A stretch of DNA of 64,000 nt from Nitrososphaerales archaeon (GTDB lineage: Archaea; Thermoproteota; Nitrososphaeria; Nitrososphaerales; UBA213): the NCBI GenBank assembly GCA_965197925.1, contig CBDAOC010000019.1:288001-352000 (forward strand). Reading direction: 5' to 3'. The translations under genes and the position numbers were made by a program. The notes beneath the pieces are model-generated. The model made no database searches. It was not told the origin of the DNA and saw nothing but the letters and a program-made list of their open reading frames with translations. Shown here piece after piece: positions 27,635 to 41,952 of the stretch (its first letter is position 1; each line of letters begins with the position of its first letter).

Positions 27635-28579
27635 GGCTGTGTGGAAACCATAGATGTTAACCCATTGTATATAGAATTGCACGTGAGATCAATTAGTTAG
27701 ATACCTAACATGCCTATGCATGAAAGAGTCTAGATATGTCAAACTTGCCAAAACTATGTTAGATGTGTTAATGACGGTCAAAATGCCTCTCTATGTGTAC
27801 AGGAAGAGCAATTTCATCTATACTGAATGGCAACACCTTATCCTTCTAACAGTAAGCCATTATGAAGAGAAGAGCTACAGAAGGCTCGTAGAATTGCTCT
27901 ATGAAGGATTCTATCTTAGAATGTATCTACAGAAAGTCCAATATTATGCAACTCTTCAGAAGTTTGCTGCAAGATTAGATGGTAGCACACTACAGAATAT
28001 TTTTTCATTCATTATTCTTAACAAGATTAGGAAATTGTTCTTAGGAATAGATGTATCTGGATTCAGAACCAGCAATGCATTGTCATGCTATACGGATAGA
28101 ACAGGAATAAGGAAAAAGTACATCAATCTATCTATAGGTGCTGAATTAAGAGAGTAAACAGCATGCTCATTGAGGATAAGAAGGGTGACCACAATACCAT
28201 AGATTTCAGACTAATTACGGAAAGAATATCTAACATAATGCTACTCTTTAGTTGTAGCAGATAAAGTGTAATGATAGTGAAACAAATCATGAAATTGTAC
28301 AAGAACTTGATGCTGTTAGTATCATACCAGCTAGATATGAAGATATTTCAATATTGAGAACCCATGAAAGATACAGCAAGCAAATGAAGAGGAGATTCTA
28401 TACAAGTCTATATCATCATAGAAACAAGAATGAGACGATAATGTCTATGGTAAAGTGAATATTTGGTGAGTATATAGCATCAAGGCTGGCCAAGATGTAG
28501 AATAGGGAACTGATGTCCAGAGTGATAGCCTACAACATGCTTAGATTGACTGTATTTATAGTATGGTTTTTACAGATCC
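27635..28579 (+). mobile_element. Degenerate IS5-like element
   Basis: Imperfect TIRs GGCTGTGTGGAAACCATA / TATGGTTTTTACAGATCC (14/18); TLQKFAAR, GIDVSGF, VVADK, HRNKNET; multiple stops. Confidence 0.8.
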
Positions 28580-29876: not shown

Positions 29877-30950
<1,074 letters not shown>

Positions 30951-31031
30951 CCCCTATAATTGTATGGGTGTTCATTTTCTGTTCAATTTTACAAAACAGT
31001 ATATATAGTTAATAACGAGAAAATAGGTTGA

Positions 31032-32543
31032 ATGCTCGCTTATATATCATTTGTATTTTTTATCACCGTCTCTTGGATTATGTCCCTTTACAGTTTGAAT
31101 TTTTACTATCTTGTATACATGTCTTGGAAAAATAGTAGGGAAGTAAAGTCAGTCGAGAATGGGTTTCCCATGGTAACAGTTCAGCTTCCAATATTCAACG
31201 AGAAGTATGTTTCCGCCAGACTAATTCAATCAGTATGTGCAATGGATTATCCTAAAGATAGGTTACAGATACAAGTTCTTGATGATTCAACTGATGATAC
31301 TAAAGACCTCTGTCAGAATATTGTAGAACGTTATAGGACGCTAGGGTATGATATAGAGCATGTAAGAAGGAAGAGTAGAGCAGGTTACAAAGCTGGTGCA
31401 TTAACAGAGGGGATGAAAACCACAAAAGGTGAGTTTATAGCTATATTTGACGCAGATTTTGTTCCCCCTAAATGGTTTTTGAGGAAAGCAATCAATTACT
31501 TTTCATCAGACAAGATTGGTATGATACAGTGTAGGTGGGGACATTTGAATGAAAATTACTCTCCATTGACTCAAGCACAGGCATTAAGTCTTGATTTTCA
31601 CTTTTTGATAGAACAGAAAGCCAAAAGTTTAACACATCTCTTCATGAACTTCAATGGTACAGCCGGTATATGGCGTAAGAGATGTATAGAAGATGCCGGG
31701 GGCTGGCAGGCTAACACTCTTGTTGAAGATATGGATTTGAGCTATAGAGCACAAATGAAAGGATGGCGTGCTTTGTTTTTGGATAAATTAGTATGTAATG
31801 GGGAAATCCCTGTTCAAATCAATGCAGCGAAGAGACAGCAGTACAGGTGGGCAAAAGGATCTATCCAGTGTGGCGTGAAACTTCTTGGAGATATAATAAC
31901 GAACAGGAAATTTCCACCAGACACAAAGATACAGGCATTCATTCAATTAACTAGGCATATAGTGCACCCATTGATGTTGATACAATTCTTATTTCTTCCA
32001 ATATTGCTTGCAATGGATTTTAAATTGTATCCAATTAGTATTTATCCTATAACTGCATTGGTAGTATACCTGCTCTTTGGTCCTGCTTTTTACCTATACG
32101 TTATAAAACGCCTCTGGAGACAATCTTGGCTGAACAAGGCCAAGGCTTATTTGTATCTAATATTGTTCTCAATAGGAATATCAGTAAACAACACAGTAGC
32201 AGTTTTCGATGCAATGAATGGAGGCAGACCAGAATTTCTTAGAACACCGAAGTTTGGGATTACTGATAAAGGTGACAATTGGAGAGATAAGGCCTATACA
32301 CTACCATTTACACAAACTACATTGTTAGAGATATTCTTTGGTGCTTATGGCATATTAGGAATATTCATATCAATATTTAGCGGAAATCCTGTTTATGCAC
32401 CAATATTAGCCCTGCAGACAATGGGGTTCATTTACATATCATTTCTTAGCATTAAACATTCTATGCTTTCAACATTTAAAAATAAGGAAGGCAATGAATT
32501 AAGAGAGATAGTGGGAGAGAAAAGTGGTAGCAAGACGATATAA
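31032..32543 (+). CDS. Processive GT2 glycosyltransferase (cellulose synthase-like)
   Basis: DDS, KAGAL, FDAD, ED, QQYRW; multiple TM helices. Confidence 0.92.
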   Translation: MLAYISFVFFITVSWIMSLYSLNFYYLVYMSWKNSREVKSVENGFPMVTVQLPIFNEKYVSARLIQSVCAMDYPKDRLQIQVLDDSTDDTKDLCQNIVERYRTLGYDIEHVRRKSRAGYKAGALTEGMKTTKGEFIAIFDADFVPPKWFLRKAINYFSSDKIGMIQCRWGHLNENYSPLTQAQALSLDFHFLIEQKAKSLTHLFMNFNGTAGIWRKRCIEDAGGWQANTLVEDMDLSYRAQMKGWRALFLDKLVCNGEIPVQINAAKRQQYRWAKGSIQCGVKLLGDIITNRKFPPDTKIQAFIQLTRHIVHPLMLIQFLFLPILLAMDFKLYPISIYPITALVVYLLFGPAFYLYVIKRLWRQSWLNKAKAYLYLILFSIGISVNNTVAVFDAMNGGRPEFLRTPKFGITDKGDNWRDKAYTLPFTQTTLLEIFFGAYGILGIFISIFSGNPVYAPILALQTMGFIYISFLSIKHSMLSTFKNKEGNELREIVGEKSGSKTI

Positions 32544-33051
32544 AGCTATAATGATAATGACGCTTGGGCTCTTATTGTTTGGTGTGATTATGGCATATGT
32601 TGGTTATAGCCAAACAGTTTATCCTTTGGAAAAAGCCAAAGGATATCTTCAAAGAAGCTTGTCCTCTCCGTCACCAGAAATGATGTTAGATTACCTTGCG
32701 AGTGCGAAACCCTTGATTCCAAGGGAAGGAAATCCTGTATGGGCATTTCCTACTGTGACAACTGACTTTGGTTTGATGCAGAGAGATATGGACATGATGA
32801 TGGACAGACTGAGAATTCTATCTACATTGCCTAGAGATGGCACGGCTTTTAACACGGGACTTGGCGATGTTCGTGGTGAACTATCCATACTTGAAACACA
32901 GATCGACGCAGCGCAACCATATGTTTATGCCAGTTTCCAGAATGTTGTTCTAAGTTCCATATGGATTGCCATAATATTGATGATCTTCACAATATTGAAA
33001 AGAGGAAAGGCGAAGTTAGAGGAATATGAAAAAGTTATTGGCGGAGAATAA
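32524..33051 (+). CDS. Two-TM membrane protein overlapping the GT2 gene
   Basis: N- and C-terminal hydrophobic helices; 20-nt overlap. Confidence 0.75.
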   Translation: MVARRYKAIMIMTLGLLLFGVIMAYVGYSQTVYPLEKAKGYLQRSLSSPSPEMMLDYLASAKPLIPREGNPVWAFPTVTTDFGLMQRDMDMMMDRLRILSTLPRDGTAFNTGLGDVRGELSILETQIDAAQPYVYASFQNVVLSSIWIAIILMIFTILKRGKAKLEEYEKVIGGE

Positions 33052-33620
33052 TTAGCACCTAGCTTCTAAGATCTTAAACCATATTTCTCCAGTTATAATA
33101 ATATTTAATTGCTAATGAATATTAGATAAGGTTTACCTAGTCAAGTCTACTATAGATGTTTCTATGATTGATACTTCTACGCATTAATTTCTGCTTTGGC
33201 TTTGTTTATTCATACTTACCATACGCCCAATAGATGTCTCCCCCATTATCAGTTTAATCTGTACTCATTCTAGAATTGTGTGTCATAAGCAAGATCTACA
33301 AACTTTATTCCAATCAAAATTTACCGCCCCTTACCTAGATTGAAACTCCATTATTAATCAAATTATAATGTAGGATTATTCAAACCCATGCTTTTTCATC
33401 CCATGAGAATGTAATTATGGAATTCTCTAGAACACCTTATTTGTATAGTGTAAAATTAGAGTAAAAGGTTGGGTGATTAACAGTAAAAATTTATCATATA
33501 TCCAAAGATAATTCAGTGGGTACATAGGGAATATTATACTCATAATGAAATAATTATAAGTATTTTGTTCACGTTAAATGACATCTTCACATAAATCATT
33601 TATGAGATAAAATACCTCAA

Positions 33621-34499
33621 ATGTCTATCGATAATCTGTATAGACGAATAGAATCGTCAGGAGTAAATGGCGTACCAAAGGCACAACTTAAGAAAGAGTT
33701 CGATATCACTAGCGATCAACTCTTCGATGGGTTACTCTCTAAAGGTGTTATATTTGAGGAAAAGAAGGAGCGTAAAATAACCTACTGGTCAAAAGATAAC
33801 TACGTGCAATATCTTGTGGGTGACGACCCAAAGTTCAAGTTAATATTCGATTTGAATTCAAAAGCCAATAATACAATTTTAGATACAATTTCAAAGATAA
33901 ACAGTGAGCTAAACAATAAAGTTGCTACTGTAACAGAAGAATTGAACAATAAAGTTGCTACTGTAACAGAAGAATTGAACAATAAAGTTGCTACTGTAAC
34001 AGAAGAATTGAACAATAAAGTTGCTACTGTAACAGAAGAATTGAACAATAAAGTTGCTACTGTAACAGAAGAATTGAACAATAAGGTAAATTCAGATACA
34101 ATTTCAAAGATAAACAGTGAGCTAAACAATAAAGTTGCTACTGTAACAGAAGAATTGAACAATATAGTTAATAGAACCCTTACTGACGTAAGGAAAACAG
34201 TAGAACAAACACCTAAAACAAAGGGAAACTGGGATAATGGTAATACTAATTTAACTCTAGATAAATTCAAGATGGAGTTTGATCGGACTTTAACGGATAT
34301 TCCAACTTCAATAGGTTGGGTCGAGATGGCTATGATAAGAGAGAGGATTTGTGACAAATATACAATATCAACACAGAATTTCTATACGTTAGCTTCACAG
34401 CTTTTTGACCAATTCAACAACGGGTACGAATTATCATCTGGAGGCAACGAAGGGGTAACGGTTAGAGGTTTATTGCATGGTTTCGTGAGGTGTATATAA
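33621..34499 (+). CDS. Putative wHTH - 11-residue-repeat coiled coil - wHTH-like protein
   Basis: Long ORF with NNKVATVTEEL x6; TAATG overlap with the downstream ATPase. Confidence 0.8.
   Translation: MSIDNLYRRIESSGVNGVPKAQLKKEFDITSDQLFDGLLSKGVIFEEKKERKITYWSKDNYVQYLVGDDPKFKLIFDLNSKANNTILDTISKINSELNNKVATVTEELNNKVATVTEELNNKVATVTEELNNKVATVTEELNNKVATVTEELNNKVNSDTISKINSELNNKVATVTEELNNIVNRTLTDVRKTVEQTPKTKGNWDNGNTNLTLDKFKMEFDRTLTDIPTSIGWVEMAMIRERICDKYTISTQNFYTLASQLFDQFNNGYELSSGGNEGVTVRGLLHGFVRCI
33881..34164 (+). repeat. Coding 33-bp tandem repeat (5 perfect + 1) within a duplicated block
   Basis: AACAATAAAGTTGCTACTGTAACAGAAGAATTG at 33912-34076 (x5) and 34125-34157; 31-bp leader repeated at 33881 and 34094. 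Confidence 0.97.
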
Positions 34500-36112
34500 T
34501 GTACCCTTATAATTTGAAGGATAATCCTTTTCCTAGTAGTCCTACGGCTACTCTAATGGATGCAAAAGTTTTAGGAGGCCCAAGACATAAAGCTTCGAAA
34601 GAAGCTGTAGTGAATTGCATAACTGAGCTCTTTGACAAAGTCTCTAACAAAGGAAATGCTAACCAAAAGGATTTTCGCTTAATTACTGTGATACAAGATG
34701 TAGGAGCGGGCAAGACGCACCTTGCTCTACATATAAAGACAACTCAAACTAATTCCGTTTGTTCTTATGTTGACCTGAGTACAATCTCACCAAAAAATTT
34801 ATCAAGTCTTTATAGTGCGCTGATAGATGGTTTTAGTAACGAAGATATTAATCAATTAAAGGCTACTGTTGTTGATTATATTAAAAACGAGGCACTTGAT
34901 GGTGATAAAGTGGCAAAGAAGGTATTCAGACCACCTTTCTTTGGAGGGAAGAAAGTGGGGGTGTTAGCCAACGAAGTTCTGGAGGGAAAGAGGATTCCTG
35001 ATATTCGTGCGCTAAACGAATTCCTAATTGATGATTTTAGTGTTATTGAGCGTATTGTGTTGAAGCAGATAATGTTTGATGATTTCAAAAATACTTCGAA
35101 TGTAAAGAATTTGGAGGAAATGTTACTTCAATTATCAGCAATAGCGAAATTGAACTTGAAATTTCTGAATAAAGTAACTGTGTTGGAGATAGATGAATTT
35201 GATTCAAACGTAGATGCTACTGATTTTATAAAGGCCGTTATAAATGCACATCTACCTTCAACAGTATTGTTGCTTATAACTACACCATCTCTTTACGCAG
35301 ACGTGCAGAAGGTTGCACCATCGGTTTTTGACAGACTGGAGAAGGCTAACTACAAGATAGATCTTGCAGGCTCAAGTACTTTTGAAGAAGTTTCTGATAT
35401 AGTACTAGAATACATAAGGGTGAATTTGAAGGATTTGACATTTGGAATGTATGAAAATGATATAATGAACAAAACAAGGGTAATCTATGATGAATTCCAA
35501 GAATTCAGAAGTATACGCTCAATGCTTAACATATTGTATCATGCAATGGAAATTTCAGGTAGAATGAATGGAGATACGATAACGGAGGAGGCATTGGATG
35601 AAACCATAAGACAAGCCTATCCTGGTCTAAGGGTTAGAGGAAGCATAATGAACGTCCCCATATCAGAATTTATCAGGATTAGAAGAGACTGTGCTGAATC
35701 TACAATCTTGGAGACTAATGTAAAGGATGCAATAAAGAGCTTAGTTACGTTTGCACACGAACAAGGAAGAGTATCAAAACCCGAGTATCCCAATGGTAAA
35801 GGCGCAGTTCAAAATGTAGATGCTTTATACAATGTTTCTGATGGGAGCAAGGTCGCAGTAGCAGTAGTGATTGACAAGGATCACGTAAAGGGCATAGAGA
35901 GGATATCAAACACAAATAATTTAGGTGCTGATAAATTGGTGGTACTTACGAATGCTCATACCGTTAGTGCAGATGATACTACTGTAGTAAATATGGATAA
36001 ATGTAAAATGATAGACCTCATCTACTTCAACAGGAAGTACAAGGACGAAAATATAATAGAGACAGATTCAGATAGGGCATTGATGCTAGCAAAATCAATG
36101 TCACTATGTTGA
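34499..36112 (+). CDS. Divergent AAA+/STAND-like P-loop ATPase
   Basis: N-terminal NPF, Walker A QDVGAGKTH, Walker B VLEIDEFD, FDRL Arg-finger-like; SD-like GAGGTG at 34487. Confidence 0.85.
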   Translation: MYPYNLKDNPFPSSPTATLMDAKVLGGPRHKASKEAVVNCITELFDKVSNKGNANQKDFRLITVIQDVGAGKTHLALHIKTTQTNSVCSYVDLSTISPKNLSSLYSALIDGFSNEDINQLKATVVDYIKNEALDGDKVAKKVFRPPFFGGKKVGVLANEVLEGKRIPDIRALNEFLIDDFSVIERIVLKQIMFDDFKNTSNVKNLEEMLLQLSAIAKLNLKFLNKVTVLEIDEFDSNVDATDFIKAVINAHLPSTVLLLITTPSLYADVQKVAPSVFDRLEKANYKIDLAGSSTFEEVSDIVLEYIRVNLKDLTFGMYENDIMNKTRVIYDEFQEFRSIRSMLNILYHAMEISGRMNGDTITEEALDETIRQAYPGLRVRGSIMNVPISEFIRIRRDCAESTILETNVKDAIKSLVTFAHEQGRVSKPEYPNGKGAVQNVDALYNVSDGSKVAVAVVIDKDHVKGIERISNTNNLGADKLVVLTNAHTVSADDTTVVNMDKCKMIDLIYFNRKYKDENIIETDSDRALMLAKSMSLC

Positions 36113-36700
36113 GATACTTTCTTTCGATCTGGATGACATCATATTCAGAAAAGATCCAGAGGATGTCTTTTGGAAAAAAATAATGGAATTGTTTACGGAG
36201 AGGTAAAAAATATCATTCAGGAGTGCTAAACTAAATGTAATGAAATAATATGAAGAATTAGGGTAGAACGATGTAAGATTGTACATTCTTGAATAACGAT
36301 TTCAATTGTTTAAGCTAGATATACCCTTGGATACCATTTTGAGTACTATAAATTATGTTAATGGTTTATCTGAAGATGTTAGTGTAGTCCATGCCCTGCC
36401 AACAAAGTTCATATCCATCATATTTACAAACAATCCTAGAAGTTCATGAGCACAAGCTGAGTATTTAATGAACCAGAGTTTATTTCACACATATTATCTT
36501 CGGTATAAAATTATGAAATGGTGAATAATAGATAATTTTTCAAAGGGATGAATTGTAAGCTGGGGAAAAAACCTGATGAAATGTTACACTCGACGATGAT
36601 CATTTTTTAGATGTATTAGAACCATGTACTGCTGGCATCTATGCGATTCTGCTTAATCATTATGATAACCTATGTTCTCTTCGCACTCTTAGATTTGAAT
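36108..36700 (+). pseudogene. Decayed HAD-superfamily hydrolase
   Basis: VEILSFDLDD, DVFW, IIFTNNPR, KKPDEMLH, DV..P..AGIYAILL across frames with many stops; limits approximate. Confidence 0.65.
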
Positions 36701-40022: not shown

Positions 40023-40902
40023 CAACTCATCTCAAAACCCTACAATACATCAAAAATGATGCAAGATTAACAAATGCCAGATAGTTTTCTGCCGTTCTTT
40101 CATACCTGGTTCTTGTTCTGTGAAATCCATTCTTGAGCCATGCAAAGAATCTCTCAACTACAAATCTTGTCTTGTTGTAATGTTTGCAATCATTATTTTG
40201 CAAGATGAACTTGGAATTTATTTTGTATGGGATGCAACATGCAATATTTCTATTCCACAACCACAAATACATTCTGATGTATTTTGCATCATTTTGTCTG
40301 CATAAACTGGTTCTATCTGTTGTATTGAATCATCATCAAGATAGTCTGAAATTGATCCTGTAACATCCATGCATTTTGTACTGTCATGTTCATTTGCTGG
40401 ACTCAACAGTATGGATATTGGAAATCCGTTACCCTCTACTGCGGCATGTATTTTTGTACCTGTTATTCTCTTGAATCCATTATATCCAGTTACATTGCCC
40501 CTTTTTTATCAGGAATGGATGAAGAGTCAACTGATATTTTTTGTAGATTAATTTTGCCAGATTTATGTGCTGAGTGAATAGTACGTGATAGAATCTTTTT
40601 CCAGATTCCTTTTTGTTGCCATTTGTTTAACCTTCTGTTTGCAGTAGAATCATCACCATATCTTTTTGGCATATCGTCCCATCGGCATCCAGTAGTTAGA
40701 ACATGGATTATTCCGTTAATGATTTTTCTATCATCATCCCTAGGCCTGCCAGTTTTTGCATGTGGTGGTATGTGTGATTCCATCATACTCCACTGTTTGT
40801 CTGATAATTCTTGGAATTTCATAAAATAATTTTAGATGTCGCTATTCATGGATCTAAATGGTCGCTAAAAATTGTCTAAATGGTTAGTTTTGAGATGAGT
40901 TG
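40023..40902 (-). mobile_element. IS5 family (IS427-like, two ORFs) copy B1
   Basis: Perfect 16-bp TIR CAACTCATCTCAAAAC; orfA 40490..40822 with AAAAAAG slip site at 40501-40507; orfB frameshifted after YADK. Confidence 0.93.
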
Positions 40903-41500: not shown

Positions 41501-41952
41501 GTCATTAATAAACATTTTATCCTTCCTCACAAGCCAGAAAATACATAATTTTGCCCTGCAGGAATCAAGTATAATGACGAAGTCATCCCAATACTCTCCA
41601 ATACATCATAATCGACGAAATGATAACAACGGACCCGATAGTTTTGTGCATTCTTCTCATATCTGATCCTGGTTCTGTGGAACCCATTCTTCAACCAGGC
41701 AAAGAATCTCTCCACAACATAGCGCGTCTTGCCGTATAGGTATTGTTCTGTATTATACAACACACTATTTTTGTTGTTGTGTCTTACTGTTTTTTCTGTA
41801 AGGAAATAAAAATGCAGTCCAGAGATTTTTCTTTTGGTGAGGTATTTCCTGATGAATTCTGCATCATAGCGTCATTCTTTACACCTATACACAAGCAAAC
41901 TTGAAGGCTCTGCTATGGCACCGCGCAATTATTTCTGATAGATCTCTCCATC
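41501..41952 (-). repeat. Imperfect duplication of an IS end plus flanking DNA
   Basis: 41501-41850 repeats 41975-42300; GTCATTCTTTACACCTATACACAA at both 41468 and 41872. Confidence 0.85.

Follow-up and report, generated by a model that had tools for sequence, protein, structure and literature searches.

What kind of system do two overlapping archaeal genes encode when the first specifies a winged-helix, coiled-coil protein and the second an AAA+ ATPase that ends in a nuclease-like fold? The question is raised by a locus of a Nitrososphaerales archaeon (family UBA213; GenBank assembly GCA_965197925.1), and it is addressed here through a window of 64,000 nucleotides of contig CBDAOC010000019.1 (positions 288,001 to 352,000 of the forward strand), to which coordinates given without a locus name refer. 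The two genes, here called A and B, encode proteins of 292 and 537 amino acids. The pair is real, conserved and uncharacterised, and it belongs, as a divergent variant, to a family previously noted in Sulfolobales, arCOG03737/arCOG03738, rather than forming a new class. An earlier note on this DNA had been unable to assign the genes to a named system, a statement that stands insofar as the family carries no system name and falls insofar as arCOG03737/03738 has been discussed in print for Sulfolobales. As to what the pair does, we give about an even chance to the reading that it descends from an ATPase-nuclease unit, was domesticated, and now serves the chromosome cycle without being essential.

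Gene Layout and Family Identity

Gene A (33621..34499, + strand) is an adaptor of the arCOG03737 family, and gene B runs on the same strand from an ATG at 34499 to a stop codon ending at 36112; a GTG at 34490 would give a protein of 540 residues. The genes are joined by a TAATG stop-start overlap (34497-34501) preceded by a Shine-Dalgarno-like GAGGTG (34487-34492), an arrangement (34487..34501, + strand) that would couple the translation of A and B, and in relatives too the two genes overlap or are separated by a few codons at most. The stop codon of the upstream gene ends at 33051, and between it and A lies an AT-rich non-coding gap of 569 bp (33052..33620, no strand assigned; 29% GC), presumably the promoter region, in which no open reading frame (ORF) of 70 or more codons was found. 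A scan of the gap for sigma-70 promoters gave 2 sites where 4.3 were expected, which is uninformative. The earlier note had described the overlap, the GAGGTG and a gap of about 570 bp, and all of them are where it had placed them. In one metatranscriptome, five short contigs at least 99% identical to the locus fall inside A and B, and none maps to the gap or, apart from its first bases, to the gene remnant that follows B; contigs cannot show transcription and are not used as support.

The identity of the family was established by profile comparison. When 25 sequences of the window's clade were aligned by hhalign with 11 from Sulfolobaceae, the matches were full-length for both proteins (B: probability 98.2, E 4e-14, 392 columns; A: probability 98.7, E 2e-16, 165 columns), and the adaptor-first, ATPase-second operon of the arCOG03737/03738 pair is found here as well. 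A published supplementary table equates arCOG03737/arCOG03738 with Saci_1229/1228, SSO2751/2750 and SiRe_2374/2373 (PMC6249222). That the Sulfolobaceae sequences we analysed are those locus tags we infer from the cluster member AAY80574.1, the gene lengths of 501 and 1350 nt, the gene order and the adjacent photolyase. The Sulfolobales pair shares with the window's pair its gene order and coupling, the two winged helices of A, the fusion of an AAA+ module to a tail of the PD-(D/E)xK fold in B and, in its core copies, a degenerate nuclease motif. It differs in the first residue of Walker A (G in Sulfolobaceae, Q in the window's clade), in the nuclease residue that is missing, in a coiled coil of about 30 residues against about 120 in the window, and in overall sequence, with an identity of about 20%. 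Named homologues of both proteins occur in Nitrososphaerales, Nitrosocaldus, Nitrososphaera and Nitrosopumilaceae, which marks the host as a relative of the ammonia oxidisers, and the named members of the phylum-wide clusters include Sulfolobaceae, Pyrobaculum, Caldivirga, Thermofilaceae and Brockarchaeota.

The ATPase Module of B

Residues 1-380 of B (34499..35638, + strand) form an AAA+ module of the Orc1/Cdc6-TnsC-BrxC type, comprising Walker A, a helical insert (residues 101-223), a Walker B DE, an arginine finger at R279 and a lid. The motifs on which the earlier note had relied are all present, namely NPF (9-11), QDVGAGKT (66-73), LEIDEFD (229-235) and FDRLEK (277-282) in the ATPase module and NVDALY (439-444), KVAVAV (451-456) and ADKLVVLTN (477-485) in the tail. 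The Walker lysine and threonine (GKT), the Walker B DE and the arginine finger are kept in all 41 paired ATPases of the window's clade, in every one of which a glutamine also replaces the first glycine of Walker A.

The structure model of B (predicted local distance difference test, pLDDT, 87.2) finds archaeal Orc1/Cdc6 proteins as its top fold matches (1w5t_A, Z 19.4, root-mean-square deviation (rmsd) 3.4, 258 residues aligned; 2qby_B, Z 18.7, rmsd 3.6, 253 aligned), which places it with the initiator-clade AAA+ fold at Z 18-19 over some 255 residues. These are followed by subunits of the origin recognition complex (ORC), TnsC, MuB and BrxC, all of which act on DNA, and it is the AAA+ core and lid that superpose best on Orc1/Cdc6 (1w5t, 2qby, 1fnn) and TnsC/MuB (Z 16-19). 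B is nevertheless not an Orc1/Cdc6, because it is not among the five TIGR02928 matches in the window's genome while two other genes pass the cut-off, and because its tail is not a winged helix. Unlike Orc1/Cdc6, it carries a nuclease fold at the C-terminus, has its winged helices on the separate protein A and contains a helical insert of 120 residues.

The ATPases of BREX (BrxC/BrxD) and MADS (Mad8) have a fold related to that of B (9zll and 9zdx, Z 14-16). Deep relatives of B match Mad8 and BrxD models weakly (E 2.5e-8 to 3e-4; 5e-11 for a short protein of locus L101), and the window's own B matches no PADLOC family at E values up to 1 and no BrxD model of NCBIfam. By eye, and with six proteins scanned, no methyltransferase or PglZ-like gene was recognised among the ORFs at 28-42 kb. 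An identity as BREX or MADS was accordingly rejected, there being no match to the curated ATPase models. Matches to Rota_VP6 (4 of 40 B sequences) and to RecA and myosin were taken as spurious, and a search of a viral fold library with B returned generic AAA+ matches and nothing else. Language-model neighbours of B include a cluster of which 35% carries PF10923; a deep search started from a mixed alignment of ATPases yielded only two proteins and did not confirm the Asgard and bacterial neighbours to which the Atlas had pointed.

A Nuclease Fold without Its Catalytic Motif

The C-terminal domain of B (residues 395-537; 35681..36112, + strand) is Mrr-like and of the PD-(D/E)xK fold, with D441 kept and V-A-V in place of D/E-x-K, and it is predicted to be inactive as a nuclease. 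The assignment rests on profile homology, since searches with the whole chain are filled by matches to the ATPase domain. A profile of 14 tails from deep relatives aligns with the window-clade tail at probability 94.6 and E 7e-8 over 122 columns; D...D-x-K is present in many of the deep-relative tails, and, of 17 tails scanned, 2 score above the Pfam cut-off for Mrr_cat and 3 more below it, with no Mrr_cat match for the window's own tail. Among solved structures the tail profile found no match (best E 0.32). The earlier proposal of a restriction-endonuclease-fold tail lacking ExK is borne out by these comparisons.

How the motif was lost depends on the lineage. Among the 41 paired ATPases of the window's clade the first nuclease aspartate is kept in 36 and D/E-x-K in none, whereas the core Sulfolobaceae copies are disabled at the other end of the motif, with the first aspartate absent in 8 of 8. 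Thermoproteales copies of B are without the entire nuclease domain (257-275 amino acids in the loci read), the five copies of family f7 have no D/E-x-K, and the tails of family f58 carry a half-degenerate D...N/S-x-K. The full D...D-x-K is kept in all eight sporadic extra copies of Sulfolobaceae and in loci L013, L014 and L111. Judged by the residues present, several vertically inherited lineages have lost the nuclease, and not all in the same way.

Protein A: Two Winged Helices on a Coil of Variable Length

The AlphaFold model of A (pLDDT 89.9) shows a winged helix at residues 1-68, a single long helix at 70-189, a disordered linker and a second winged helix at 211-292; both ends match winged-helix folds in structure searches, in agreement with the winged helix-coiled coil-winged helix architecture that had been read from the sequence. 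The C-terminal winged helix (34251..34496, + strand) is the most conserved part of the protein and near neutral, and the N-terminal one (33621..33824, + strand) is less conserved and, on average, mildly basic. Mean pairwise identity is 55% for the C-terminal against 43% for the N-terminal domain in 25 window-clade sequences, and 56% against 35% in 11 from Sulfolobaceae. The N-terminal domain may be the DNA-binding end, and the less basic C-terminal domain the docking site for B.

The winged helix at the N-terminus invites two further explanations of the pair. One is an ATP-dependent transcriptional regulator, in which a DNA-binding A would be switched by B; such a regulator would resemble cyanobacterial RcaD/RcaG. 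MarR/ArsR-type fold matches of this domain (Z 7-9), the long gap before the operon and the label 'GntR family' given to A's arCOG in published supplementary tables favour it, yet the winged-helix matches are generic, tied with SelB, TFIIIC and RPA32, and conservation in A is highest in the near-neutral C-terminal domain; we judge this explanation improbable. The other is an accessory role in recombination or repair, with A as a Hop2-Mnd1-like adaptor and B as an ATPase whose dead nuclease would bind junctions. The earlier note had likened A's N-terminus to Rpc34 and Mnd1 winged helices, and this likeness was borne out by weak Pfam matches of each type in 1 of 40 members (Mnd1 HTH, E 4e-4) and by the structure 2dk5 (Z 8.8), besides a weak match to 4y66 (E 0.8); a published table lists an HHsearch match of SiRe_2374 to KOG3433, and photolyase and HhH-GPD glycosylase genes neighbour the pair in some crenarchaea. 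Against this, the Hop2/Mnd1 matches are confined to the N-terminal part and the likeness spans a generic winged helix and coil and nothing more, and the Sulfolobus genes are repressed rather than induced by ultraviolet (UV) light (PMC6101591), so that a recombination role seems very improbable.

Over the C-terminal domain, the best fold match is chain 8 of the human OC1M licensing complex (Z 8.0, rmsd 5.3, 78 residues aligned), a chain that we take to be Cdt1, followed by winged helices of RPA2 and MCM. Pfam models of the MCM winged helix match relatives of A, one of them above the cut-off among the 49 scanned, and a PBP2 match to one Thermoproteales A is weak (E 0.0015). Matches of A to apolipoprotein, ZorA, LeoA and JetC models (Pfam, NCBIfam and PADLOC) involve the coil only, lie below the cut-offs where these are given, and were dismissed as compositional.

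The coil itself contains a lineage-specific expansion of a 33-bp, 11-residue repeat (33912..34164, + strand), with 5.2 tandem copies at 100% identity in 33912-34084 and a sixth exact unit at 34125. Its hydrophobic periodicity is 3.72, and that of 19 relatives (3.53-3.79) is mostly near the hendecad value of 3.67. The repeat is not an assembly artefact, because in all three sequencing runs that cover all 30 bins the depth of its words exceeds that of the flanks 5- to 9-fold. The depth of the unit implies some 8-9 copies in two runs and 5-6 in the third, against 6 in the window; sequencing contigs give no exact copy number, and the number of repeats may differ between strains. The distance between the two conserved anchors of A ranges from 42 to 417 residues in 150 relatives (median 83; 159 in the window), and A therefore cannot be a fixed ruler. 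Of the earlier suggestion of a DNA-binding ruler or filament with an ATPase, for defence, chromosome organisation or recombination, the ruler is thereby ruled out.

Distribution and Inheritance

Of the 301 genomes surveyed in the order, 143 contain B and 133 contain A; 132 have both genes, 11 have B only and 1 has A only; related genomes are not independent, and the counts are descriptive rather than tests. Two of the genomes (G478 and G485) are unpublished; they raise each count by 2, and the conclusions do not depend on them. In 48 of 51 loci (some of them duplicates) A is the gene immediately before B, and the three misses consist of one contig that starts inside B, counted twice, and one false ATPase match; this co-occurrence bears out the treatment of the two genes as a unit. 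Of 20 regions read around matches to the A profile across the phylum, 19 have an ATPase gene after A, the exception being L091. The 11 B-only genomes are nine of family f58, genome G507 and one contig beginning inside B, and a search of three f58 genomes and of G507 found no match to A in any of them. Copies of B without an adjoining A were seen at L103-L105 (f58), at L119 (G507) and at L120, the second copy of genome G384.

Both genes are near-universal in families f1 (5/6 genomes), f55 (10/10) and f61 (97/99) and nearly always present in single copy. The pair occurs in about one fifth of the genomes of family f2, with A in none of the 42 of its genus g3. Across the phylum the A profile matches 87 of 401 genomes, including 18/18, 22/23, 14/17 and 11/12 in four other families. 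A quick tree of 68 ATPases, from which 14 redundant or partial rows had been excluded, recovers families as clades (Shimodaira-Hasegawa-like approximate likelihood-ratio test, SH-aLRT, 96, 80, 91 and 93), supports the ammonia-oxidiser clade at 100 and gathers the core Sulfolobaceae copies into one clade (99) among the extra copies; it has no outgroup, and its deep branches are long. In the ammonia-oxidiser lineages the pair is vertically inherited, as this comparison of genomes and sequences shows.

Viral Homologues, Extra Copies and the Case for Defence

A different explanation is already in print. SiRe_2374 has been described as two winged helices and SiRe_2373 as an AAA ATPase with a PD-DExK nuclease, and the hypothesis was put forward that the two act in abortive infection and are opposed by viral homologues (ADG.51), with no experiment on the pair in the passages of that paper drawn on here (PMC11065993). 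As an anti-viral abortive-infection or toxin-antitoxin pair, B would be the toxin or sensor, A the antitoxin and the viral A fragments decoys. Homologues of A do occur in ATV2 (AON96442.1; L125:1324-1698), ARV3 (2281-2475), the plasmid pDL10 (L102:2350-2640) and one IMG/VR contig (L123:3944-4264). In the same direction point the nuclease-intact extra copies of Sulfolobaceae, which lie in varied places, some of them adjoining Cas3, PIN or transposase-like genes, and the weak Mad8 and BrxD matches of deep B relatives. It is to the C-terminal winged helix that the viral and plasmid proteins align (residues 93-164 of the 167-residue Sulfolobaceae profile), whereas the relevant passage of the published account has them retain the N-terminal one (PMC11065993). 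A scan of viral contigs with a window-led alignment gave six pattern matches, none of which was confirmed, and phage records held no match for the window's A.

Several observations sit poorly with a defence function. The catalytic D/E-x-K is absent from the window copy and from all 41 paired relatives, as is the first aspartate from the core Sulfolobaceae copies, and a single copy at a conserved position with a family-congruent tree is unlike what is seen in defence islands. B occurs without A in ten genomes for which a contig end is not the explanation, the window's B is without PADLOC matches, and the supposed antitoxin tolerates insertions in S. islandicus (PMC6249222 supplement), where a polar effect on B could mask essentiality. 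On balance we consider a defence function unlikely, though the likeliest of the alternatives.

A Possible Role in the Chromosome Cycle

The reading of the pair as a domesticated module with a non-essential role in the chromosome cycle draws on the initiator-like fold of B, on the inheritance and motif pattern described above and on the relatives of the pair in Sulfolobales. It also draws on one Thermoproteales genus in which the pair immediately precedes the genes for GINS and MCM. Saci_1228/1229 are 4- and 2-fold down after UV, a response in which the transcripts of cdc6-1, cdc6-3, mcm and gins likewise fall in Sulfolobus, and they are cited, at second hand, as highly induced at mitosis and cytokinesis (PMC6101591). 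The S. islandicus pair tolerates transposon insertions and is non-essential (PMC6249222 supplement); it is expressed at all three time points of a cell-cycle series, with the lowest or low values in G2 and the highest in S (PMC12216602 supplement). Its expression in control cells is about 220-310 fragments per kilobase per million reads (FPKM), with a slight rise on overexpression of aCcr1 (PMC9976878 supplement), and a weak aCcr2 peak lies over SiRe_2373 (PMC13199686). The main text of a preprint on the TFB2 regulon makes no mention of these genes (10.64898/2026.09.06.749720).

A precedent is offered by Cran1 (SiRe_0086), an OLD-family ABC ATPase with an active TOPRIM nuclease that is essential and acts in the cell cycle; this defence-family ATPase-nuclease is vertically inherited in Sulfolobales and apparently not employed in defence (PMC12796447). 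Unlike Cran1, B is an AAA+ protein with a dead PD-(D/E)xK fold and a winged-helix partner, and its Sulfolobus relative is non-essential. An identity of B as Cran1, OLD or PARIS was rejected, since B is not an ABC ATPase joined to TOPRIM.

We propose that A and B are an old two-gene module, which began as an ATPase-nuclease unit such as defence and mobile loci contain and may have been retained, its nuclease disabled, for non-essential housekeeping on the chromosome at the time of segregation and of the onset of the following replication round. Protein A would oligomerise through its hendecad coil, bind DNA or chromatin through the N-terminal winged helix and dock B through the C-terminal one. 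B would assemble on DNA in the ATP state, like its structural relatives, with its dead nuclease fold serving as a DNA- or protein-binding domain; it would then remodel or load its target, and ATP hydrolysis would reset the complex. Binding between A and B, contact of either with DNA, the direction from defence to housekeeping and the nature of the target all belong to the conjectural part of this scheme.

A bolder version would make the pair a second, split replication-licensing or helicase-loading module of TACK archaea, in which an Orc1/Cdc6-like ATPase receives its winged helices in trans from a partner reminiscent of Cdt1 or WhiP. The module would have arisen by domestication of an ATPase-nuclease defence unit whose nuclease was disabled on at least three independent occasions, and viruses carrying the docking winged helix alone would use it to steer the host cell cycle. 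The hints for it are the initiator folds, the winged helices of licensing, RPA2 and MCM proteins, the lowering of transcripts by UV, and an adjacency to GINS and MCM found in one Thermoproteales genus, where an adenylate-kinase-like gene, A, a truncated B, GINS and MCM follow one another on one strand (L018, L020/L072/L098, L071, L074 and L075). All of these hints are weak or generic, and we regard a split loader as a long shot.

The more general proposal of a role in the chromosome cycle must also be held against a number of observations that weigh the other way. The pair is absent from all 47 genomes of family f56 and from several small families, and its absence from many complete genomes (f56, g3) shows that it does not belong to the core machinery. 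An A match is lacking in 314 of the 401 phylum genomes, and B stands without A in 9/9 f58 genomes and G507. Viral carriage of the partner's C-terminal domain fits defence as well, and the GINS-MCM neighbourhood is limited to the one genus among the loci read. Identity to Saci_1228/1229 is about 20% and the deep branches of the tree are long, so that the genes may not be strict orthologues. In the S. islandicus data all phase comparisons of the partner are 'not significant' and the ATPase is listed as 'No phase' (PMC12216602 supplement), and therefore the cell-cycle signal in that species is modest. Functional evidence on the pair comes from Sulfolobales alone, and a search of openly accessible papers found none on the ammonia-oxidiser genes.

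Neighbouring Genes

A decayed gene for a HAD hydrolase (36109..36700, + strand) begins within the stop codon of B (TTGA, 36109-36112). Aligned with the intact HAD of L003, it shows 36-41% identity in three segments and three frames, with seven in-frame stops and at least two frame changes, which confirms the decay that the earlier note had seen. The same note had counted the hydrolase with the operon; among the loci read, however, a HAD gene follows B only in the window's family (f1) and one sister family (f55), and it was rejected as a third component of the module, being a local neighbour outside it. Short ORFs at 27720-28157, 40027-40822 and 41527-41763 are, we presume, transposase-like remnants, and together with the pseudogene they suggest local genome decay.

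Upstream, the same glycosyltransferase gene is found in loci of three families (the window, L003, L116, L121 and L122), a shared position that speaks for vertical inheritance of the pair. In the window, the region preceding the pair (29913-33051) encodes a 345-residue protein with an uncharacterised N-terminal and a C-terminal 4Fe-4S ferredoxin domain, a family-2 glycosyltransferase and a small membrane protein. In f2 genomes a coiled-coil protein of 465-500 amino acids lies just upstream of A (L121:2815-4209 and L122:3032-4531, with partial copies in L007, L008 and L011). A gene of about 140 amino acids without a Pfam match follows B in many f2 and f61 loci (L005:1030-1452, L006:3142-3561, L115:4766-5182, L116:7613-8050 and L121:7337-7753); in the window's genome it lies on another contig (G000:C20:109915-110340) and is therefore not obligatory for the module.

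Two loci of unusual composition were also seen. The first, L101:4172-8775, has two TGT-like genes (Pfam TGT and DUF6884) flanking a divergent A and a short BrxD-like ATPase, a context that suggests 7-deazaguanine DNA modification. At L091:5575-9323 an A-like protein without an ATPase adjoins a Rep-like gene and a Cas4/PD-(D/E)xK gene, in what is probably an integrated element.

Significance

The coupling of chromosome segregation to the following round of replication is poorly understood in TACK archaea. The pair described here is conserved from Sulfolobales to the ammonia oxidisers, and a model organism open to genetics can do without it. Two conflicting interpretations of the pair have been published, one concerned with the cell cycle and the other with abortive infection. 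The pattern found here, in which the nuclease is kept in sporadic extra copies and lost in various ways in lineages where the pair is fixed in single copy, and in which viral mimics carry the C-terminal domain only, helps to separate the two. If the domesticated, chromosome-cycle reading is true, the pair would join Cran1 as a second example of a defence-type ATPase-nuclease that has been put to use in the cell cycle.

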